From contig CAZKFZ010000001.1 of NCBI GenBank assembly GCA_964552475.1, forward strand, positions 35,347 to 99,346: a stretch of DNA of 64,000 nt, read 5' to 3'. Origin of the DNA: an uncultured Candidatus Saccharibacteria bacterium. GTDB lineage: Bacteria; Patescibacteriota; Saccharimonadia; CAILAD01; BJGX01. Under the pieces are notes generated by a model. The model was not told the DNA's origin, did not search any database, and saw only the letters and a program-made list of their open reading frames with translations. Below, one piece after another: positions 6,783-60,576 of this stretch. Each line of letters opens with the position of its first letter. Within the stretch, counting starts at the first letter, position 1. The translations under genes were made by a program, and so were the position numbers.

Positions 6783-9700
6783 ATGCCTGACAACTTACCC
6801 AAAATCAAAACTACGAAAGTAGTGTACCCGCAGATATATTCATATACTCTGCCTGAACATAAAGCCAATGAAGGCTCACAGAAGATAGGCTATACAGAAC
6901 GTAAAGATGTTGATGCTCGTATAAATGAACAAACTCACACTGCTGCAATTAAACTCAAGCCACAAAAGCTGTGGAGTGCACCATCTTTTTTTGCTGATAA
7001 TAAAAATGATTTCAACGACAAAACTTTTCATAAATTCTTAGTAAAAAATGGTGTAGAGAACAGGTTGGATTTGGGTAAGGAGTGGTTCTATTTTGATGGT
7101 ACGCCTGAGAAATCAAAAGAACTGTTTGATGCATTTCGTGAGCAAGGCTTTGCAGCTTTGCAAAATGTCGATAAAAAGATACCCTACTCTCTACGTACTG
7201 AGCAGCAAGCCGCAGTAACAATGGCAAAAAACTATTTTACAAAGCATAGTGGAGGTGAGGTATTATGGAATGCGAAGCCGAGATTTGGTAAAACTCTAGC
7301 TACGTACGATTTAGCCAAACAAATGCAAGCCAGAAAAGTATTGATTGTCACCAACCGACCTGCAATCGCTAACTCATGGCTGGATGATTTTGAGCAATTT
7401 GTCGAAGGTTATATGTTCATTTCTGAAACGTCTTCATTATCAAATCGCACCGCACTTACTAGAGAACAATTTGTCTCAACTTCTGTAGAGCTACCTCAAA
7501 TTACCTTTTTATCACTACAGGATATGAAAGGCTCAAGATATTTTGGTGGTGATTACGAAAAACTCGAGTGGGTTGCTGATCTCGAGTGGGATATGCTAGT
7601 GATCGATGAAGCCCATGAAGGGATCGATACAGAGCGTACTGACGCGGCCTTTGACATAGTCAAGCGAAAATATACACTGCATTTATCTGGCACGCCGTTT
7701 AAGGCTTTGGCAAATAATAAATTTCCTAAAGAAGCTATCTTTAATTGGACGTATCTTGATGAACAGAAAATCAAACAAGCAGAACTAGAAGAAAATGATA
7801 CGGGTGATCACACAGAACTACCAAACCTAAAGCTATATACATATAGAATTTCTGAGATGGTGGCGGATGAGGTGAATGAAGGAATAGAAATTGATAATGA
7901 AACACGTGATTTTGCATTTGATCTCAATGAATTTTTTGCTACTAAAGATCAGAAGTTTGTTCATGAAGAAGATGTACGGGAATTCTTAAAGAATCTTACT
8001 TCTAATACAAAATATCCTTTTTCAACCCCAGATCTACGTGAAGAACTACGCCATACATTTTGGTATGTTGGTAATAGAGTTGACTCAGTAAAAGCTCTTG
8101 AGCAGTTGTTAAAACAAGACGATATCCTTAAAGATTATAAGATAGTAGTAGCAGCCGGTGATGGTAAGTCATTTGAAGAAGAAGAAAATGACTTCTATGG
8201 CAACGAGAAATCGTTCGATAAAGTCAAGAAGGCTATTGCAGAAAACCCCAGAACCATTACTCTTTCTTGCGGTCAGCTCACAGCCGGTGTGACTATTAAA
8301 GAGTGGTCTGCCGTATTGATGCTTACCGATATAAAGACACCCGCTCAATATATGCAGGCAGCTTTTCGTGCTCAAAACCCACACAGATTTTATGAAGACG
8401 GTCAGCTAAAAGCAAAAGAATCTGCTTATCTATTTGACTTTGCACCAACAAGAGTATTGGAAATATACGACCAGTTTGCGAATGGATTGAATGGCAAAGC
8501 TGCTAATGGTGAAATAACAGAATCTGAACGCAAAGAAAATATCAAAGAGTTACTCAACTTTTTTCCTGTAATATCTGAAGATATAGATGGCAAGATGGTA
8601 GAGTTAGATGCAGAGAAGGTCCTTACATTCCCGAATGCACTAGCTGCAGCTGAAATCGTAAAAGCGCGCTTTATGACCAACTTGTTGTTCAATGACAATG
8701 TAAAAGGCGTATTTAGTTTTCCTAAAGAAGTAGAAGATATTCTCGACAAAATGCCAATAGAGAAAAACAAGCGTGCAGAAGTTGCTAAGAGTGTGCTAGA
8801 CCTTGATGATGCGCGTAAGTTTGAGCAGTCAAGAGAAGCCAAGATCAACGAAAACTCAGGTGTAATACTAGGCGAGAAGATATTCCGTTCGAATATCGAA
8901 CGAGTTGTAGACAACGCATTGAATGCCGAAACTACCGAAGAAATAATTGAAACATTGCCTGATAAGATTACCGAGCTAGCTGAGCCACTAATTGCAAAAT
9001 ACAAAGAAGTATACAAAGCAACAAACGCTGAGGTTGAAGAAATGAAAAAAGAAACAGATGAAAAGGTACGGCTAGTCGTTGCTGAATACGAAAGCTCTGA
9101 GATAAAAGACACGGCCAAGCTAAAAGAAAACCTTGCAAATGTAATTGAAAATGACCTGGTTATAGATAGAGTTGAACAAAAAGAAACAGAAGTAGTTGAG
9201 AAAGTTCAGAAGACAAAAGAAGAAGAAGTACGAGACCGTCTACGTTCGTTTACTCGCACTATACCAATGTTTATTATGGCGAACTCAACAAAAGAAACTA
9301 TCAACATAGATAATTTTGATGATCATATAGACGATAATGATTTTGAAGATCTTACCAATATCACTAAAGATGAGTTTTATAAGCTCAGAGATGGCTTTGA
9401 CTATGATGAGAATGGTGAACGCAAAACCTTTGGAGGGGTATTTGATCGCTACAAGTTCAATGCCTCAATAGCTGAGTTTGTAGCTGAGAAGCAAAAACGT
9501 GCTGACTACTTCAATACCCATGAGGATATATTCGAACTCATACCCAATCAGAAAAACAATCAGATATTTACACCTAGAAAAGTCGTGCAGATAATGATTA
9601 ACAGTTTAGAGAAAGAAAGCCCAGAACTTTTCGAAAGAACTGATAGTACTTTTATAGATCTATACATGAAGTCAGGTATGTATATTACTGAGATAGTCAA

Positions 9701-10997
9701 AAAGTTGTTTACCCATACTCGCAAGCACTATAATAGTGATACAGAGTGTTTAAAGCATATATTAGAAAATCAAGTATACGGTTTGGCACCCACCAAGGTG
9801 CTATATGATATTACCCAGTCGTATATATTTGGTTTCGATCAAAATAACAAAGTTAGTAACCACAATTTTGTTGAGCACGACTTACTGCCCGAGGCAAAAG
9901 ACGATACTGCAGCAAAGAAACTCGCACAATTATTTGGAAATGGAGGAAGTATGATGAAATTTGATGCCGTAGTGGGGAATCCACCGTATCAGGAAAATAG
10001 CGGAACAAGTGCCCGAGATGATGCTATATACAATTATTTTTACGACACTGCTGTACAGATAGCTGATAAATACTGCCTGATTTCGCCTGCACGCTTCTTA
10101 TTCAATGCCGGTAGTACCCCAAGACAATGGAATAAAAAAATGCTTAATGACACTCACTTGAAAATTATATCTTATGCGCACGACTCGTCAGCTGTTTTTC
10201 CTAATGTAGGTATTGCGGGTGGTGTAGTGATTATCTTTAGAGATGCTACTCAAGAATATGGAGCAATCGGTACATTTACAAGCTTTGATGAGCTAAATAG
10301 TATTGCGAGTAAAGTGAACACAGCCAGACAAGAAGCACTGACTAATATAATTTCAGGACGGGGTATATATAGGCTAACCCCGCAGCTGCATGAAGAACAC
10401 CCTGAAGTCAAAAATATGCAATCTGCTGGCCACAAAGACGATGTCGGGACGGGTGCATTTGATAAGTTTATCGGAATTATATTTTTTAAATCAAAACCGA
10501 ATGACGGAAAACATTACACACGCGTATACGGTAGGCTGGCCAATGAAAGAACTGATATGTGGATCAGGTCTGACTATATCAATAAACCATATGCAAATGA
10601 TAAGTATAGGGTCATTATTCCTAAAGCTTATGGTACTGGCATAACCGGAGTGGGTGTAACTGCAAGTTTGATTGGAAAACCTTTTGTTATTAAGCCTAAT
10701 GAAGCCTTTACAGAGATGTACATATCCATAGGCGATTTTGAGAGCGAACAAAGTGCTTTAAATGCTTTAAAATACGTAAAATCTAAGTTTGCGCGAGTGA
10801 TGCTAGCTGTCCTTAAGGTTACACAAGACAACACTAAAGAGAAATGGTCAAAAGTTCCACTCCAAGACTTCACATCGAACTCTGATATCGACTGGTCGAA
10901 ATCCATTCCAGAAATCGATCAGCAACTATATGCAAAGTATAAGTTATCAAAAGATGAAATAGAATTTATAGAGTCTCATGTTAAGCCCATGGTGTAG
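6783..10997 (+). CDS. single-polypeptide SNF2/DEAH-box helicase fused to Eco57I-type N6-adenine DNA methyltransferase (Type ISP-like restriction-modification or anti-restriction enzyme)
   Basis: 1404 aa. Helicase motifs: Walker A AKPRFGKT (motif I), VIDEAHEG (motif II DEAH), LHLSGTPF (motif III, SNF2/ResIII-like). A ~250-aa E/K-rich coiled-coil linker follows. MTase motifs: NQIFTPRKVV (motif X, FxxP) and VVGNPPYQ (motif IV NPPY, gamma-class N6-adenine). A ~250-aa C-terminal region could act as a target-recognition domain. The ~150-aa N-terminal domain has a possible GIY-YIG-like stretch (QIYSYTL...KIGYTERKDVDARINEQTH), unconfirmed. Confidence 0.8.
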   Translation: MPDNLPKIKTTKVVYPQIYSYTLPEHKANEGSQKIGYTERKDVDARINEQTHTAAIKLKPQKLWSAPSFFADNKNDFNDKTFHKFLVKNGVENRLDLGKEWFYFDGTPEKSKELFDAFREQGFAALQNVDKKIPYSLRTEQQAAVTMAKNYFTKHSGGEVLWNAKPRFGKTLATYDLAKQMQARKVLIVTNRPAIANSWLDDFEQFVEGYMFISETSSLSNRTALTREQFVSTSVELPQITFLSLQDMKGSRYFGGDYEKLEWVADLEWDMLVIDEAHEGIDTERTDAAFDIVKRKYTLHLSGTPFKALANNKFPKEAIFNWTYLDEQKIKQAELEENDTGDHTELPNLKLYTYRISEMVADEVNEGIEIDNETRDFAFDLNEFFATKDQKFVHEEDVREFLKNLTSNTKYPFSTPDLREELRHTFWYVGNRVDSVKALEQLLKQDDILKDYKIVVAAGDGKSFEEEENDFYGNEKSFDKVKKAIAENPRTITLSCGQLTAGVTIKEWSAVLMLTDIKTPAQYMQAAFRAQNPHRFYEDGQLKAKESAYLFDFAPTRVLEIYDQFANGLNGKAANGEITESERKENIKELLNFFPVISEDIDGKMVELDAEKVLTFPNALAAAEIVKARFMTNLLFNDNVKGVFSFPKEVEDILDKMPIEKNKRAEVAKSVLDLDDARKFEQSREAKINENSGVILGEKIFRSNIERVVDNALNAETTEEIIETLPDKITELAEPLIAKYKEVYKATNAEVEEMKKETDEKVRLVVAEYESSEIKDTAKLKENLANVIENDLVIDRVEQKETEVVEKVQKTKEEEVRDRLRSFTRTIPMFIMANSTKETINIDNFDDHIDDNDFEDLTNITKDEFYKLRDGFDYDENGERKTFGGVFDRYKFNASIAEFVAEKQKRADYFNTHEDIFELIPNQKNNQIFTPRKVVQIMINSLEKESPELFERTDSTFIDLYMKSGMYITEIVKKLFTHTRKHYNSDTECLKHILENQVYGLAPTKVLYDITQSYIFGFDQNNKVSNHNFVEHDLLPEAKDDTAAKKLAQLFGNGGSMMKFDAVVGNPPYQENSGTSARDDAIYNYFYDTAVQIADKYCLISPARFLFNAGSTPRQWNKKMLNDTHLKIISYAHDSSAVFPNVGIAGGVVIIFRDATQEYGAIGTFTSFDELNSIASKVNTARQEALTNIISGRGIYRLTPQLHEEHPEVKNMQSAGHKDDVGTGAFDKFIGIIFFKSKPNDGKHYTRVYGRLANERTDMWIRSDYINKPYANDKYRVIIPKAYGTGITGVGVTASLIGKPFVIKPNEAFTEMYISIGDFESEQSALNALKYVKSKFARVMLAVLKVTQDNTKEKWSKVPLQDFTSNSDIDWSKSIPEIDQQLYAKYKLSKDEIEFIESHVKPMV

Positions 10998-36285: not shown

Positions 36286-37062
36286 ATGAGTGAATCTAAA
36301 ATTTCTTTTAGCAAACTTCGCAATCTCAATCTTGTTGCTGCAGGTTTGCATTTTGCCCAGGCTGGATTAATTCTGTACTTAAGCAAAAGTTTTACTTTGC
36401 CAGTAACGACTTCTTTTTTGCGATTTAATTATAATACTCAATCTTTAGAACCAGCTACAAAAACACTGTTTAATATCAACCTAGCATACTTGGTGGTGGC
36501 ATTTTTGTTTATGAGCGGCATTGCTCACCTAGTAATTACTACGGTTTGGCGCAAGGGCTATGAGGCCGATCTGGTAAAAGGTATTAACCGCGCCCGCTGG
36601 ATAGAATACAGCATTAGTGCCAGCACCATGATAGTGGCAATAGCCATGCTTACTGGTATATACGATATAGTAACGCTACTAGCGCTATTTGCACTAACAG
36701 CGGTAATGAACTTGTGTGGTCTAATAATGGAGGTACACAACCAGACTACCAAAAGAACCAACTGGTTGAGTTACTATGTTGGTTGTTTGGCCGGCATAGT
36801 GCCCTGGATAGGTATAGCGCTAACATTTTGGGCTTCGGCACAATTTAGTATTGGCGATGCCCAAATACCTACTTTTGTTTACTACATATTTGTTAGCTTG
36901 TTTATATTCTTTAACTGCTTTGCAATAAATATGGTGTTGCAATACAAAAAAATTGGTCCCTGGCGTGATTACTTATATGGAGAGAGGGTTTATATTATTC
37001 TTAGCTTAGTAGCCAAATCAGCCTTGGCTTGGCAAGTTTTTGCAGGTACGTTAAGACCATAA
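36286..37062 (+). CDS. heliorhodopsin (retinal-binding 7-TM photoreceptor, inverted topology)
   Basis: 258 aa, 7 hydrophobic helices. The stretches RWIEYSISASTMIVAIA, GCLAGIVPWIGI and GERVYIILSLVAKSALAWQVFAG (retinal Lys in TM7) match the conserved heliorhodopsin blocks as recalled from memory. GGAGGG RBS 7 nt upstream. Confidence 0.7.
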   Translation: MSESKISFSKLRNLNLVAAGLHFAQAGLILYLSKSFTLPVTTSFLRFNYNTQSLEPATKTLFNINLAYLVVAFLFMSGIAHLVITTVWRKGYEADLVKGINRARWIEYSISASTMIVAIAMLTGIYDIVTLLALFALTAVMNLCGLIMEVHNQTTKRTNWLSYYVGCLAGIVPWIGIALTFWASAQFSIGDAQIPTFVYYIFVSLFIFFNCFAINMVLQYKKIGPWRDYLYGERVYIILSLVAKSALAWQVFAGTLRP

Positions 37063-37120: not shown

Positions 37121-38053
37121 ATGAGCGAAAAAACTAACAAAATTTATGACGTAATAATTATTGGCGCTGGCCCGGCTGGCTACACAGCAGCAATTTATGC
37201 TTCACGCGCTAATCTTGGTACGCTAATGATTGCTGGCGATACACCTGGTGGCCAACTGCTACTTACATCTGAGGTGGAGAACTTTCCTGGTTTTAAAGAC
37301 GGCATTATGGGCCCAGAGCTGATGGAGCAAATGAAGGCCCAGGCGCTACGATTTGGCACCGAATTTAGAGCCGACTTTGTAACCAAGATTGATTTAAAAG
37401 CTCAACCCAAAAAGATCTGGGTAGGCAATGATATGTATAGCGCCAAAACCGTTATTATATCAACTGGTGCAAGTGCTAACTGGCTGGGCCTAAAAAACGA
37501 ACAACGCCTAATGGGCAAGGGCATATCGGCCTGTGCTACTTGCGATGGTTTTTTCTTTACCGACAAGCACGTAGTAGTGGCTGGTGGTGGAGACAGTGCT
37601 ATGGAGGAAGCTCTCACATTAGCCAAATTTGCAAGTAAGGTAACTATTGTGCACCGCAGAGACGAATTTAGGGCGAGTAAGATTATGCAAGATCGTGTAA
37701 AAGAACACAAAAAAATTGATATTATTTGGAATGCTCAAGTAGTAGATGTGCTCGGCAAAGACTTTGTAGAGGGTGTAAGGCTCAAAGATACAGTAACTAG
37801 TAAAGAGCGCGACTTGGCTTGTGGCGGACTGTTTGTGGCTATTGGTCACACTCCAGCCACCAAGCTTTTTGATGGTGTACTAAATAGAGATGAAAAAGGC
37901 TATCTTACGCCCAAGGCTAATACTAGTACTGAAATACCTGGCGTATACGCTGCGGGTGATGTAGCTGACTCGCGCTATAGACAAGCAATTACCGCCGCTG
38001 GCGATGGTTGCCGTGCAGCACTAGAGGCCGAGCACTTTATTGCAAACCTTTAA
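37121..38053 (+). CDS. trxB: thioredoxin-disulfide reductase
   Basis: 310 aa. IIGAGPAGYTAAIYASRANL (FAD), redox-active CATCDG, GGGDSAMEEA (NADPH) and YAAGDVAD. Confidence 0.9.
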   Translation: MSEKTNKIYDVIIIGAGPAGYTAAIYASRANLGTLMIAGDTPGGQLLLTSEVENFPGFKDGIMGPELMEQMKAQALRFGTEFRADFVTKIDLKAQPKKIWVGNDMYSAKTVIISTGASANWLGLKNEQRLMGKGISACATCDGFFFTDKHVVVAGGGDSAMEEALTLAKFASKVTIVHRRDEFRASKIMQDRVKEHKKIDIIWNAQVVDVLGKDFVEGVRLKDTVTSKERDLACGGLFVAIGHTPATKLFDGVLNRDEKGYLTPKANTSTEIPGVYAAGDVADSRYRQAITAAGDGCRAALEAEHFIANL

Positions 38054-56063: not shown

Positions 56064-56762
56064 TTAAATTCTCACCTGTGCATTGTGGGCAATTTGCACA
56101 ACAGTCTCAATATCGTCGGTGATTGTATACAGACTAGTATCTTCGGGGTCTATAGCCATAAGGTCTGGCGAGAGCATTTGGGTTTGGTGCAAGCCAATAT
56201 CGATTGGCTCCCAAAACTTAGCGCCCACACAAACGATAGGTACGGTATGAATCTTGTGGTTTTGTACTAGAGACAAGATCTCATAAAATTCATTGAGCGT
56301 GCCATATCCACCGGGAAAAAATATATACAAACGAGCTGCAAAAGCCATAACTACCTTACGAGTGAAAAAGTAATGAAAAGGTAGCGCTACGGTTTGGTAA
56401 GGGTTCGACTTTTGTTCTTTGGGCAATTCAATGTTTAGTCCTATAGAATGTCCGCCCGCCTCTTTTGCGCCGCGATTAGCGGCTTCCATTATGCCGGGGC
56501 CACCACCAGTGAGAACAGTATAATCTAACTCTTTTACTAGTCTATAAGCAATCTTTCGCGCCTTAATGTATTCTGGGTGATTCTCCTTTACTCGAGCTGA
56601 GCCAAATATTGTAACTTTTTTTGGATAGCGCTGAACAATATTTAGGCCCTGGCTAATTTCTTCATTAATAAGACAGACTTTTTCACTAGTTTCGTCGTTG
56701 GTTTTGCTATCGCAACTAGTCATTATTTCTTCGAGGGTATGGGGTTTGAAGGCATTGTCCAT
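56064..56762 (-). CDS. LOG-family (TIGR00730) Rossmann-fold nucleotide-binding protein
   Basis: 232 aa. VTIFGSARV, TGGGPGIMEAANRGA, PGGYGTLNEF (PGGxGTxxE). Confidence 0.8.
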   Translation of the reverse strand: MDNAFKPHTLEEIMTSCDSKTNDETSEKVCLINEEISQGLNIVQRYPKKVTIFGSARVKENHPEYIKARKIAYRLVKELDYTVLTGGGPGIMEAANRGAKEAGGHSIGLNIELPKEQKSNPYQTVALPFHYFFTRKVVMAFAARLYIFFPGGYGTLNEFYEILSLVQNHKIHTVPIVCVGAKFWEPIDIGLHQTQMLSPDLMAIDPEDTSLYTITDDIETVVQIAHNAQVRI

Positions 56763-56898: not shown

Positions 56899-57711
56899 TT
56901 GAAAAAACCGAAAGGCGAAAAAGTGCCTACCAACAAATTAATTCGCGGTGAGGTTTTTAGAGGATCTACAGACGAGTGCTTTAAGGCATTTGTGAATAGA
57001 TTTGATAAGCCTCGCGAACAAAAGCTGTTTGCTCAGCTAATTAATGTTAGCTACCACTCTACATTAAGAGTATGGATTCGTAATGGTTTCAACACTCAGG
57101 GTGAGATTCTGTTGCGTGTTCGCGTAGTGCTAGAGCTATTTGGCTACAATTGTACGGAATGGGAAGATCTTGCCGACGAAGACAGAATAATTGCCTATGC
57201 AGTTGGTCTTGGTGTGTGTAGTGCTGCAGATGCTAGTGAGGCTCTAGCCTATGCTAGAACTAAGCAGTATCTAAGGTACATCCTACAAAGAACTGGACGC
57301 ACCAAAGACAAGGACGAGTTGGCTAAAGTATATGCTGAGATTGTCTTTTCAACAACTCAGCTACACATCGCCGAGTTTTGGGATAATGATGTAAAACAAA
57401 GCCCGGTGCTCTATAGAGCTAAGCCAGTTGCAACTAATGACGAATCAACTCTTATCGTATCTGCCCCAGACGAGACAACTCTATCTGTAGCAGAAGTTGA
57501 GAATGTCTTTGTTGCTTCGGTACAGGCTCTTTTACCTCTGGCTCGCTACTTCAATAGCGACGCGGTGAGCGAAGAGCAGCGTCGAGGCTTAAGAAAACGC
57601 GTAGGTTACGACGGTATTAGCGAGCTTAGTAGCTTGTTTGATTCACTCAGTAACGAACAAAGTCGTCGCAAGATTCGTGCCAACAGGAGCGAAGAGAGGA
57701 TTGTACGCTGA
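56899..57711 (+). CDS. HTH (XRE-like) domain protein, translationally coupled to a GHKL ATPase
   Basis: 270 aa. QKLFAQLINVSYHSTLRVWIRNG looks like a helix-turn-helix. TTGACT, 17 nt spacer, TAATAT promoter-like element at 56832-56860. Stop overlaps the next start (TGATG). Confidence 0.5.
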   Translation: MKKPKGEKVPTNKLIRGEVFRGSTDECFKAFVNRFDKPREQKLFAQLINVSYHSTLRVWIRNGFNTQGEILLRVRVVLELFGYNCTEWEDLADEDRIIAYAVGLGVCSAADASEALAYARTKQYLRYILQRTGRTKDKDELAKVYAEIVFSTTQLHIAEFWDNDVKQSPVLYRAKPVATNDESTLIVSAPDETTLSVAEVENVFVASVQALLPLARYFNSDAVSEEQRRGLRKRVGYDGISELSSLFDSLSNEQSRRKIRANRSEERIVR

Positions 57712-59378
57712 TGGCTAAACTCAAACCTCACGTAGGAGCGGCCATTATGGCCGCGGCCGAAACTTACCCATACGTATTTGCGGTTATCCTAGAGGCTATC
57801 CAGAACGCCATGGATGCCGATGCTCAGAACGTTTGGGTAGATATCAATCGTAAGAAGCGTGAAGTTCGCGTTTACGACGATGGCGTAGGTGTTACCAAAG
57901 AGAAGTTCGATATTGCTTTGCAAACCGTTGGACGAAGCATTAAGGGTGAGCAAGTAGATGCCTATGGTCAATTTGGCCGCGGCTTGGTGGCTCCTTTGGG
58001 CAAGTGTGATTACTTCACATTTACTTCTAATGGTCTGGAGTGGACCTTTGTTACCGAAGACATCGAAAACTCGGCTGACGAAGTGGATGTTCCCGAAAAA
58101 GAAGTAGAGATTGTTTTTTCTAAGAGTCAACAAAAACGTCAAAAACACCCAGTAAACCCCAATTGGCGTACCCGCATGGTGATGTATGGTGTCACCAAAG
58201 ACCGCAAGACGTCGGAGTTTGATGTGAACAAGTTGGCTGCTACCGCGGTTACCAACTTCCGCACCAAGATGCTTCGAAACGAAACAGTCTTGCGCTTTAC
58301 CGTACAACCCCTGAAGGGCCCAGAATACACCTTTACAACGGTGGCTGAGCCTTATAGTGGCACTAAGCTTGATCCGTTCGTTTTCGAGCCGAGGCGAGAC
58401 AAATTGGTAGAGATCAAGCTGTTCTTGGCACTTCATATTGAAGGTAAGTATAGCGGTAGTGTTTCTACTGGTACCCTGGCTACACCTTACCGCGTACCAT
58501 TTGAGACTCTCTTAAAAAACCAAAGAAGCCTTACAGATCTACTAGACGACGAGATCGTTCAGGCGCTTTGTTCGGGAATTTTTGAAGGAGAGTTGCTTAG
58601 CAACACTCTTACTTTGAGCCCCGAGCGAGTAAGCTATGAAGACAACGATGGTTTTGTAGAGTTCTGTATGGCACTAGAGAACTGGTATGAGCATACTGGT
58701 AGGGAATACTACCAAGAGGCTCTTAGCCGAGAAGACTCTGAAAGATTTGAAAAAAATGCCGAAAAAGCTTTAGATGCTCTCAACAAGCTTTTTGAAGACC
58801 CATCTATGAGAATGTATGCTGATCTCGTTGGTCGGTTTCCTGCCGATCTCCCTGGTACAGGGGCGCAAGGCCCCGACCCAACCGGTGACGACGAAGAAAC
58901 TGATGTGCCTGCCAGCAAAACACCTAGCCCAAAGAAGACCGGTGAGGGTGGTAGCCCTGGTGGCGGAAACGGTACTGGAGGCGACAACCCAACACCTGGC
59001 GGTGGGGGTGGTGGTAAAAATGGAGGAAATGGTCGAACCACCGATGGTGGCGAAACAAAGGTTCCGGATCCATCTGGTAAGGAGCGTAAAACCGTCAAGG
59101 CGAAGTCGTTTGGCTTGCGCCTAGGTGAAACTCAACACCTAAGTGGACCTTGGCAACTAGATTTACGAGTTGGTGTTTTGTGGATTAACACCAAGCACCC
59201 CTTGTACTTACAGTGCGCCGACTACAGTCGAAACCCCGACCTTTGTATTCGTCGCTATCAACAGCACGTGGCCATTCAGGCTCTTAGCCTGCATTGTTCA
59301 CCTGAAGAATCACAAAAGCACGCAGCCGAGGTGCTCGACACCGAGCTTGCTGCCTTTGTTATCTTGCTAACTCAGTAG
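57711..59378 (+). CDS. MORC/MutL-like GHKL (Bergerat-fold) ATPase, HATPase_c_3-type
   Basis: 555 aa. N-box ILEAIQNAMDA, G1 VYDDGVGVT, G2 YGQFGRGLVAPLGKCDYFTFTS. C-terminal Gly-rich low-complexity segment (GEGGSPGGGNGTGGDNPTPGGGGGGKNGGNG). No MutL endonuclease motif. Confidence 0.7.
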   Translation: MAKLKPHVGAAIMAAAETYPYVFAVILEAIQNAMDADAQNVWVDINRKKREVRVYDDGVGVTKEKFDIALQTVGRSIKGEQVDAYGQFGRGLVAPLGKCDYFTFTSNGLEWTFVTEDIENSADEVDVPEKEVEIVFSKSQQKRQKHPVNPNWRTRMVMYGVTKDRKTSEFDVNKLAATAVTNFRTKMLRNETVLRFTVQPLKGPEYTFTTVAEPYSGTKLDPFVFEPRRDKLVEIKLFLALHIEGKYSGSVSTGTLATPYRVPFETLLKNQRSLTDLLDDEIVQALCSGIFEGELLSNTLTLSPERVSYEDNDGFVEFCMALENWYEHTGREYYQEALSREDSERFEKNAEKALDALNKLFEDPSMRMYADLVGRFPADLPGTGAQGPDPTGDDEETDVPASKTPSPKKTGEGGSPGGGNGTGGDNPTPGGGGGGKNGGNGRTTDGGETKVPDPSGKERKTVKAKSFGLRLGETQHLSGPWQLDLRVGVLWINTKHPLYLQCADYSRNPDLCIRRYQQHVAIQALSLHCSPEESQKHAAEVLDTELAAFVILLTQ

Positions 59379-59388
59379 TTAATACACA

Positions 59389-59418
59389 AGCCCCTAGGAC
59401 ATTATTCTAGGGGCTTTT
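59389..59418 (+). terminator. rho-independent terminator
   Basis: AGCCCCTAG-gacattatt-CTAGGGGCT followed by TTTT, 11 nt after the stop. Confidence 0.7.
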
Positions 59419-59430
59419 ACTTATGTGGCA

Positions 59431-59459
59431 TTGACATACACCAATTTTGTTGCTACAAT
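59431..59459 (+). promoter_or_regulatory. consensus sigma70 promoter
   Basis: TTGACA, 17 nt spacer, TACAAT, 43 nt upstream of the 59502 start. Confidence 0.6.
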
Positions 59460-59501
59460 CTCAAAGACCATTTTGTCGGGTGAATTGCCCGCAGAACAAA
59501 G

Positions 59502-60167
59502 GTGGATCTTTTGACAGATAAGAAGAAAACTAGACTTCACAACGAAGATGAGTGGATTAAGATACTTAACAAGGTCTTAAGGGCCCTACAAGCCATGCCG
59601 GGCGATGAGTCTGGTAACCGAGTATTTACCCTCAGAGAACTCCTAGAGCCACTTGATCTATATGGCCACAGAGCTACTATTTCGCGCCATCTTAGCTATA
59701 TGCGAGTGATGGTAAAGGGCGATAAGCAGCCTACTGGCAGATATTTATGGCACGTAGACATGACCAAGAAGCGCATTACCGCTAACGATCTTCGAAATGC
59801 ACGCGAGCGTCACACCAAGAGAATCTATGCAACTCAAAACATCAAGCCAAAAACTAGAGCGCCTAAGAAGCCGGTAAAGACACAGTCGAGTCCGGGAGTG
59901 GTTGATGCAACTGCAAAGTCAGAAGGTGTTGAACCAGCAGAAGACGCAAATGATGGTTTTCCAAACCTTGTGGCTTTGGCATCTGAGCTTCAGGCTAAGG
60001 TAGACGAAATCGTAAGCAGGCTCCGCGCTTTGAATGCTGAGATTGTAGCAGAAGAGAGGTCCCTTGCTGCCAAGCGTACGCTTTACGCAGAGCTGGAGTC
60101 GGAATATATTCCGCTCAGCGAAGCTGTTCGGAATGCTACAGCTAGCTTAATGAAAGCTAGCTCGTAA
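59502..60167 (+). CDS. hypothetical protein (basic N-terminal region, coiled-coil C-terminus)
   Basis: 221 aa. GTG start at 59502, or TTG at 59511. Own promoter and terminator. Confidence 0.5.
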   Translation: MDLLTDKKKTRLHNEDEWIKILNKVLRALQAMPGDESGNRVFTLRELLEPLDLYGHRATISRHLSYMRVMVKGDKQPTGRYLWHVDMTKKRITANDLRNARERHTKRIYATQNIKPKTRAPKKPVKTQSSPGVVDATAKSEGVEPAEDANDGFPNLVALASELQAKVDEIVSRLRALNAEIVAEERSLAAKRTLYAELESEYIPLSEAVRNATASLMKASS

Positions 60168-60174
60168 ACCCCGC

Positions 60175-60201
60175 AAAACCCCTACTACCGTAGGGGTTTT
60201 T
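60175..60201 (+). terminator. rho-independent terminator
   Basis: AACCCCTAC-tacc-GTAGGGGTT followed by TTT. Confidence 0.7.
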
Positions 60202-60250
60202 ACTTTGCCAAAAACACTACATATAGCATTAAAAACTTGTGCTTTAGCTA

Positions 60251-60280
60251 TTTACAAGCTTATTTGCAAAGGCGTATAAT
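60251..60280 (+). promoter_or_regulatory. sigma70-like promoter for the small ORF
   Basis: TTTACA, 18 nt spacer, TATAAT. Confidence 0.5.
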
Positions 60281-60344
60281 CATAAGCACGAACATGTTTA
60301 GTAAGTAGCTAAACATTAAATAAAACAAAAGGAGGGTTATTTAA

Positions 60345-60443
60345 GTGCCAGAAACGAACAAGATCAACGATGAAGAGTGGGATAAACCCATGGTTTGCCC
60401 GATAAACCCAGAAGAATTGGCCGAATGTGAGGTTTGCCAGTAG
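60345..60443 (+). CDS. 32-aa Cys-containing small protein (not in the ORF track)
   Basis: GGAGG RBS 9 nt before the GTG. Translation VPETNKINDEEWDKPMVCPINPEELAECEVCQ (C-x9-C-x2-C). Own promoter upstream and a terminator 55 nt downstream. Confidence 0.45.
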   Translation: MPETNKINDEEWDKPMVCPINPEELAECEVCQ

Positions 60444-60497
60444 CTTCTAAAGTTAAGAAAAGCGCATTACATTGAATTTATACTAAAAAGAGATAGT

Positions 60498-60525
60498 AAA
60501 AAAGACCAGTTATCTGGTCTTTTTT
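60498..60525. terminator. bidirectional rho-independent terminator
   Basis: AAAAAGACCAG-ttat-CTGGTCTTTTTT. Confidence 0.7.
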
Positions 60526-60537
60526 AGTAGATAAAAT

Positions 60538-60576
60538 AAAAATACCCAATTCTATTTAGAATAGGGTATTGTTTTT
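60538..60576. terminator. hairpin terminator for the minus-strand pyrE-like gene
   Basis: ATACCCAATTCTA/TAGAATAGGGTAT imperfect inverted repeat flanked by A- and T-runs, immediately downstream of the 60583 stop. Confidence 0.45.

Follow-up and report, generated by a model that had tools for sequence, protein, structure and literature searches.

Ribonucleotide reductase (RNR) provides the sole de novo supply of DNA precursors, and the re-reduction of its active site is a classic problem. In class I RNR the alpha subunit's C-terminal tail is a flexible shuttle: its cysteine pair returns the active-site disulfide to the reduced form and is then itself reduced by thioredoxin or glutaredoxin (PMC11903788, PMC4078304, PMC9669993). 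The window, a stretch of 64,000 nucleotides from an uncultured Candidatus Saccharibacteria bacterium (GenBank assembly GCA_964552475.1, contig CAZKFZ010000001.1, positions 35,347 to 99,346), contains a gene for a 32-residue peptide that carries the motif of such a tail as a product of its own. Like the tail of NrdA or NrdE (C754/C759 in E. coli, C695/C698 in B. subtilis), the peptide would be flexible, has a cysteine pair one residue from the C-terminus and is expected to be a thioredoxin substrate. Unlike that tail, it is made separately from its own promoter, has an extra acidic N-terminal segment, and in Saccharibacteria is unlinked to nrd genes. Some class II RNR also have a flexible C-terminal tail with a cysteine pair; in both classes the tail moves into the active site following every turnover. 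All statements on function made below are based on homology, gene order and operator motifs.

A split class II RNR is known from P. aeruginosa, in which the separate NrdJb mediates reductive dithiol exchange (PMC4520616, PMC5704485); the literature describes this split as a unique example in a free-living organism. As proposed for the window peptide, NrdJa and NrdJb represent a system in which the C-terminal electron-transfer module is encoded separately, and NrdR boxes control the operon. However, NrdJb is a folded cysteine-rich domain with four Zn-ligand cysteines in addition to the redox pair; it is a class II component, its gene comes immediately after nrdJa, and it is reported only from a few gamma-Proteobacteria, whereas the peptide is about 3.6 kDa, has three cysteines and no compact fold, derives from class Ia and occurs widely in Patescibacteria and phages. 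Small redox proteins that supply RNR with electrons are also known in thioredoxin, glutaredoxin and NrdH, phage-encoded forms among them; they are often co-located or co-regulated with nrd genes and often carried by phages. Those proteins have the thioredoxin fold and act on the tail, whereas the peptide would be the tail itself, one step further along and without a fold. No description of a separately encoded class I RNR tail was found in the literature searched. Such a split tail is not categorically new, since the chemistry and the class II precedent are already known.

The 32-codon gene and its family

The earlier note on this DNA had described a complete small expression unit (promoter, GGAGG, GTG, 32 codons and terminator) for an acidic three-cysteine peptide of the pattern C-x9-C-x2-C. 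Both descriptions held: the unit can be read in the sequence and its signals are conserved in relatives, and the peptide has nine acidic and two basic residues (net charge -7) with its cysteines at positions 18, 28 and 31. An in-frame stop lies directly 5' of the open reading frame (ORF), which has its own promoter, ribosome binding site (RBS) and terminator and thus stands alone (Table 1). Promoter-like matches are common by chance (six seen against 3.5 expected in 2 kb); the window promoter is convincing because its -35 and -10 elements, CATAAGCAC and AAAGGAGGGT are found again in front of the homologous ORF in some 20 further genomes. The -35, the -10, CATAAGCAC immediately 3' of the -10, the RBS AAAGGAGGGT and the downstream terminator are kept in all chromosomal copies. 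A 5' leader hairpin is found in the closest relatives and is missing from relatives with short leaders. The terminator, predicted beforehand to be strong and bidirectional, has a highly stable stem and could act in both directions because it lies between an A-run and a T-run. The convergent pyrE-like gene has a separate hairpin of its own at 60541-60570. Matches to Rfam were all sub-threshold, and every one fell on the terminator.

The earlier note had looked to conservation of the frame to tell a gene from a leader or a small RNA, and the result was clearly positive. In one related locus (L003), whose pyrE-like protein is 75% identical to that of the window, the peptide is identical despite synonymous changes in the DNA. 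In another (L007; pyrE-like protein 57% identical) 29 of 32 residues are identical, the start codon is ATG and the gene is annotated. A degenerate DNA pattern for WDKPMVCP, used to search for further loci, matched 15 Saccharibacteria genomes, each with a stand-alone ORF ending ...C-E-(A/V)-C-Q-stop; a 16th match, in Celeribacter, lay inside a large ORF and was due to chance. Among ten 32-residue chromosomal copies the synonymous divergence (dS) was saturated, the nonsynonymous divergence (dN) was 0.01-0.12 and dN/dS was 0.01-0.13. The start codon is ATG in many relatives, and the gene has been called in other assemblies. The 32-codon ORF is a real protein-coding gene under strong purifying selection. 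An exact look-up of the window peptide found no such product on record, gene callers having missed the ORF in this genome, and searches of Pfam, NCBIfam and PDB sequences with it gave no match. AlphaFold predicted mostly coil with a short helix at residues 22-27 (predicted local distance difference test score, pLDDT, 75; predicted template modelling score, pTM, 0.21).

A profile (A1) built only from the 15 Saccharibacteria peptides, with the family search alignment headed by a 51-residue member, detected about 110 protein clusters of 29-77 residues, all named 'hypothetical' and none with a Pfam domain. A wider profile (A2) of 103 sequences was scored against 1.84 billion representative proteins and matched 71 representatives at E<=1e-3, with the match at the extreme C-terminus in all but one false positive. 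The family comprises at least 160 protein clusters of 28-89 residues (median 36) and has no family name. Its invariant core is CP(I/V)DP-x5-C-x2-C-Q with the stop codon immediately after. Among the 160 small members the spacer from DP to C-x2-C is five residues without exception, 155 have a single residue beyond the last cysteine, which is Q in 149, and 95% carry a net negative charge. In the family alignment C18, P19, C28 and C31 are invariant and I20, D21, P22, L25, E29 and Q32 nearly so, and the N-terminus is free to vary.

Some sequences related to the family depart from this plan. The members P0051, P0078, P0079, P0091, P0158 and L012:2992-3198 lack a stop codon behind their terminal Q and continue for another 13-36 residues; sequencing errors or decay of the copies may explain this, or they may represent a genuine extended variant. 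A methyltransferase-like protein of 212 residues (P0367) ends in ...NVVCPIDPSELAQCDSCQ, the tail motif on a non-RNR enzyme. A 784-residue putative primase/helicase (P0280) placed in the peptide's 90%-identity cluster lacks the motif and looks like a database artefact.

The NrdA tail, fused and split

By sequence comparison, the conserved core of the family is the C-terminal redox tail of class Ia RNR alpha (NrdA) in Patescibacteria. The 120 closest NrdA are all from Patescibacteria and 116 of them end in C-x2-C plus one residue, 99 with the three-cysteine motif and 17 with a two-cysteine variant, GP-x-DPGT-x-NIC-x-GCE. An alignment of 97 NrdA showed the D-P and two cysteines to be invariant. 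Profile A1 matched 92 of the 120 NrdA, in every case up to the C-terminus; of 240 decoys, reversed or shuffled, it matched none. The longer matches of the A2 library search consisted of seven NrdA C-terminal fragments, which carry YYLHMKPRHTAEQST from the end of the catalytic domain, the methyltransferase-like fusion P0367, and the one false positive, a eukaryotic C2H2 repeat protein. The Patescibacteria tails have the same motif as the peptide, KP-x-V-C-P-(I/V)-D-P-x5-C-x2-C-Q, and the form shared with the window peptide is KP-x-V-C-P-I-D/N-P-x5-C-x2-C-Q-COOH. As in a class I tail, the cysteine pair lies near the chain end (C28-x2-C31-Q32-stop); covalent attachment to an RNR alpha polypeptide is lacking. 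Since the ORF is stand-alone with its own signals, the window peptide is classed as a free-standing derivative and not as a tail. In the AlphaFold model of a full NrdA the fused tail is disordered, consistent with a flexible shuttle.

The fused and free forms occur side by side in one locus (L042). Its 916-residue NrdA ends ...KVCPIDPAERAQCDSCQ / ...KHSPKVCPIDPAERAQCDSCQ-stop, the same motif as the family core, and a distant family member of 39 residues (P0137) is encoded between nrdA and nrdB; 15 of 17 residues are identical between the fused tail and the free copy. A 77-residue sequence (P0153) considered as a stand-alone member is really the NrdA C-terminus on contig L029, where the segment 1-3466 has the nrdA 3' end and nrdB twice, inverted, an arrangement that probably arose as an artefact of assembly.

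Metagenomes were scanned for the tail motif as well, and the 120 loci obtained were sorted by setting. Fused NrdA tails, nearly always with nrdB next, account for 53 loci. Another 30 are Saccharibacteria-type free ORFs, 18 of them adjoining LOG, Rpf-like or pyrE genes; 24 are other free ORFs, eight are free ORFs adjoining nrd genes, and in five a contig edge by nrdB makes fused and split forms indistinguishable.

The nrdA operon is split in six loci (L053, L076, L106, L075, L058 and L165). The nrdA is tail-less and ends ...KVNKAE...GFSFASVK-stop shortly after the catalytic domain, giving a protein of 796-797 residues where the gene is complete (L053 and L058). Next come a spacer bearing a separate RBS, an independent ORF of 58-70 residues ending ACP(I/V)DPAERALCEGCQ-stop, and then nrdB, which lies 28-45 nucleotides from the tail ORF in five loci and, in the sixth (L058), at a distance of about 0.75 kb. 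The tail-less NrdA have been called independently as proteins, on contigs of up to 519 kb. When apparently tail-less NrdA were used as a prediction test (n = 3), one locus, L166, proved to have a 42-residue ORF between nrdA and nrdB with a second type of tail, ...MPVDPGELNICLSCE. Overall, seven of the eight peptide ORFs inside nrdA-containing operons go with a tail-less nrdA; these are on seven split contigs and the tail ORFs are of 42-70 residues. This pairing argues for replacement of the fused tail by the free peptide rather than competition with it. The thioredoxin reductase of the split-operon lineage is 52% identical to that of the window, a value that is not decisive on lineage.

Members of 58 residues (L043, L044, L140, L148 and L156) have the N-terminal helix-like segment (E/D)(K/R)LAQ(I/V)AAA that is common to the operon-encoded split tails. 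The L043 and L044 peptide genes lie away from nrd, with ZIP transporter, superoxide dismutase and CHAP genes as neighbours, and these settings suggest that the tail gene has been relocated repeatedly.

Putative operator, neighbourhood and phage copies

A palindrome upstream of the promoter, ACACTACATATAGCAT, agrees with the NrdR box ACACWATATATWGTGT at 13 of 16 positions, including all six of the highly conserved ones (C4, A6, A8, T9, T11 and G13; PMC13584703), and is the sole site in the window with at least 13 of 16 and all six key positions. An NrdR-like box alone is not significant in 64 kb (two matches against 1.5 expected). Among 21 non-redundant related loci, 17 have a box of at least 12/16 located 20-32 nucleotides 5' of the -35, compared with 0.9% of background segments. 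The island-free genomes have a second box 31-33 nucleotides further 5' (start to start), which corresponds to the canonical 15-16 bp linker, and the score of the box pair is at least 22 in 11 of 20 loci versus about 1% of the background. Upstream of its split nrdA operon, L058 has boxes of a similar kind. The window has a single NrdR-like box because the terminator of an inserted gene occupies the position of the distal box, and with the second box apparently displaced the regulation of the peptide gene may differ in this genome. Together the motifs are suggestive of an NrdR link between the peptide gene and RNR.

Most Saccharibacteria genomes have the peptide gene at about 200-250 bp from a LOG/TIGR00730-family gene, with its transcription pointing away from the latter, and an Rpf-like or pyrE/pyrF gene follows. 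A three-gene cluster is inserted between the LOG and peptide genes in the window, L003 and L007; it is absent from most relatives. In L014, L015 and L016 other inserts occupy the same intergenic spot, apparently a hot-spot for insertion. The cluster is possibly a mobile or defence module, and its 555-residue GHKL ATPase gave weak PADLOC matches to TmtA and a type II restriction endonuclease. It was considered and rejected as a functional partner of the peptide because other genomes carry other inserts or, in most cases, lack it, LOG then directly adjoining the peptide gene. Among the window genes is one for a thioredoxin reductase; no canonical thioredoxin (WCGPC) was found anywhere in the window, and no thioredoxin gene in the loci examined. 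Elsewhere in the window, 6783-10997 encodes a fused restriction-modification-like enzyme of 1404 residues with ResIII/SNF2 helicase and Eco57I-type methylase domains. A scan of the genome contigs with the pyrE-like protein gave no match.

Table 1. Positions in the window of the peptide gene, its signals and the neighbouring features
Feature	Position	Strand	Details
Peptide coding sequence (32 residues)	60345..60443, including stop	+	GTG start, TAG stop; product MPETNKINDEEWDKPMVCPINPEELAECEVCQ
Conserved tail core within the peptide			WDKPMVCPINPEELAECEVCQ; carries C18, C28 and C31
Sigma-70-type promoter	60251..60280	+	TTTACA-18-TATAAT; -35 TTTACA at 60251-60256, -10 TATAAT at 60275-60280, spacer 18 nucleotides; 11/12 consensus positions; kept in relatives
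RBS	60331..60335	+	GGAGG, 9 nucleotides 5' of GTG; AAAGGAGGGT kept in all chromosomal homologues
5' leader hairpin of the peptide mRNA	60294..60316	+	leader fold -10.8 kcal/mol, z = -3.7
Intrinsic terminator hairpin	60497..60526	.	13 pairs, -18.3 kcal/mol, z = -7.4 against shuffles; A-run and T-run flanks
NrdR-box-like palindrome	60214..60229	+	ACACTACATATAGCAT; ends 21 nucleotides 5' of the -35
Terminator of the inserted 221-residue gene	60176-60201		occupies the distal box position
Inserted three-gene cluster	56899-60167		270 residues, no Pfam; 555 residues, HATPase_c_3/GHKL ATPase; 221 residues, no Pfam
LOG-family gene	56064-56762		
Thioredoxin reductase gene	37121-38053		
Heliorhodopsin gene	36286-37062		directly upstream of the thioredoxin reductase gene

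The peptide is also found in phages. Viral contigs of IMG/VR gave 11 stand-alone matches with open frames of 26-55 residues; a tblastn search of GenBank phages found no match to the peptide. Phage-like modules with copies were seen in L012, L020, L027, L030, L050, L123, L141, L154 and L159, the neighbours being genes for tail proteins, holin/endolysin, terminase, HNH and recombinase. In L154 the peptide ORF sits immediately 5' of a phage nrdB, whose start it overlaps; most phage copies do not adjoin RNR genes. A chromosomal copy and a phage-type copy occur together in two Saccharibacteria assemblies. Phages are known to carry RNR accessory redox genes, and phage-borne tail copies fit this.

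A very short subtype of about 20-26 residues, M..(D/E)..V(D/G)G(Y/V)ACP(I/V)DPAEAA.CEGCQ, occurs in L048, L050, L067, L086, L100, L105 and L159 and in the viral L031, L038 and L041. Where neighbours were scanned (L048, L050 and L159) it lies on phage-like contigs of 45-56% G+C, by collagen-like, M23 peptidase or Sipho_Gp37 genes. The hosts of these phages may be outside Patescibacteria.

Proposed role and alternatives

The window ORF probably encodes a free-standing, trans-acting RNR alpha tail that serves as an electron shuttle reduced by thioredoxin. It would be a separate acidic 32-residue tail, made from its own strong promoter and RBS and probably under NrdR control. Electrons would pass from NADPH through thioredoxin reductase, the one encoded in the window, to thioredoxin, from there to the C28/C31 dithiol of the peptide and finally to the active-site disulfide of RNR. 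The peptide would enter the active site as a tethered tail does and reduce the catalytic disulfide there. The Saccharibacteria copy, unlinked to nrd genes, would do the same job as the operon tails, and its partner RNR would have no tail of its own. Strong expression would compensate for the lost tethering; the near-consensus promoter and strong RBS fit this because a free peptide would lose the high local concentration that the tether provides. A fuller version of this proposal is put forward tentatively. In Saccharibacteria the tail may have been fully released to become an abundant, diffusing, obligatory third RNR component of about 3.6 kDa, expressed from an NrdR-controlled promoter unlinked to nrd and possibly serving another RNR class, and the phage copies may be auxiliary genes that boost or take over the synthesis of deoxynucleoside triphosphates (dNTPs).

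Several observations weigh against a free-standing tail. No RNR genes were found in the window or in the approximately 45 Saccharibacteria loci examined, and no nrdR gene was seen in the sequences examined. NrdD does not use a cysteine tail. The RNRs reported from Saccharibacteria are the class III NrdD in mammal-associated members and adenosylcobalamin-dependent class II in environmental ones (PMC7427843), so the partner RNR may not be class Ia. Addition of the class II cysteine-rich domain in trans failed in vitro (PMC5704485), and NrdR requires two boxes in vitro (PMC13584703) where the window has one. The window peptide has N21, versus D in almost all members and in all 97 aligned NrdA. 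Two of the three tail-less NrdA in the prediction test (L167 and L168) have no tail ORF within 3 kb, and L042, with its intact fused tail and a free copy, is the exception among the eight operon cases. AlphaFold lends no support for docking because it models the fused tail as disordered.

The exception of L042 and the location of most phage copies away from RNR genes would suit a tail mimic, one that competes with the enzyme's own tail or with substrate for the active-site pocket, or titrates thioredoxin, and so damps dNTP synthesis much as yeast Sml1 does by obstructing the R1 tail, the phage copies serving to shut down or re-route the host RNR. Inhibition of the Sml1 type is established, as cited in a passage of PMC8403727. 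Yeast Sml1, likened to the peptide by description and not by sequence, is small and largely unstructured and acts at the site used by the R1 C-terminal tail, yet it is an inhibitor and has no CxxC shuttle. A regulatory or inhibitory mimic is nevertheless unlikely in view of the tail-less nrdA that accompany seven of eight operon-embedded free peptides and of the invariance of the three cysteines and their C-terminal position, as expected for a working redox shuttle; moreover, an NrdR-type operator would co-repress the peptide with RNR, which is odd for an inhibitor. There is also a low probability that the peptide, though derived from an RNR tail, is a redox or metal peptide with another target, either a thioredoxin-dependent dithiol carrier or a three-cysteine ligand of Zn or Fe-S, possibly as a dimer. 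It is unlinked to nrd in all Saccharibacteria loci, where its conserved neighbour is the LOG-family gene of nucleotide metabolism; its first cysteine is invariant in the free peptides and dispensable in some fused tails; one member is fused to the methyltransferase-like protein P0367; and class II RNR tails include a zinc finger (PMC5704485). However, both the split operons and the NrdR-like operator link the family with RNR, and the peptide has three cysteines with no histidine, no fourth ligand, no predicted compact fold and no Pfam, NCBIfam or PDB match. The metal-binding mini-protein suggested by the earlier note is not supported, for much the same reasons, namely the three cysteines, the mostly coil AlphaFold model with its low pTM, and the related NrdA tails, which may keep C-x2-C alone.

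The second suggestion of that note, a precursor peptide, fared worse. The precursor of a ribosomally synthesised and post-translationally modified peptide (RiPP), its leader variable and its cysteine-containing core conserved, would resemble PqqA and MftA, which are likewise short and combine an N-terminus that varies with a C-terminal core that does not. Those peptides always adjoin their maturases, whereas no maturase-type gene (radical SAM, YcaO, lanthionine synthetase, protease or exporter) was found near the peptide gene, in the window or in related loci. The earlier note had itself seen no obvious modifying enzyme nearby, and this now extends to about 45 related loci, in which the only recurrent neighbours are LOG, Rpf-like and pyrE/pyrF. 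With the same core naturally ending an enzyme of 850-1000 residues and peptide genes sitting within nrdAB operons, a RiPP precursor is very improbable. That the ORF is spurious and the region a non-coding RNA or leader is suggested by its shortness, its GTG start and its omission by gene callers here; the substitution pattern given above refutes this, as do the ATG starts in many relatives, the calls in other assemblies and the lack of an above-threshold Rfam match, and what probability remains is negligible.

If the peptide is indeed a free-standing RNR tail, a separate reducing tail of 30-70 residues would show that tethering is dispensable, and it would provide a minimal, synthesisable probe for the recognition of the tail by the active site and by thioredoxin. 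The analysis gives an identity to at least 160 clusters of 'hypothetical' mini-proteins that are often missed by gene callers, and suggests a new kind of phage auxiliary gene. If true, the proposal would add an unannotated component to the RNR of phages and of Patescibacteria, which make up a large share of bacterial diversity.

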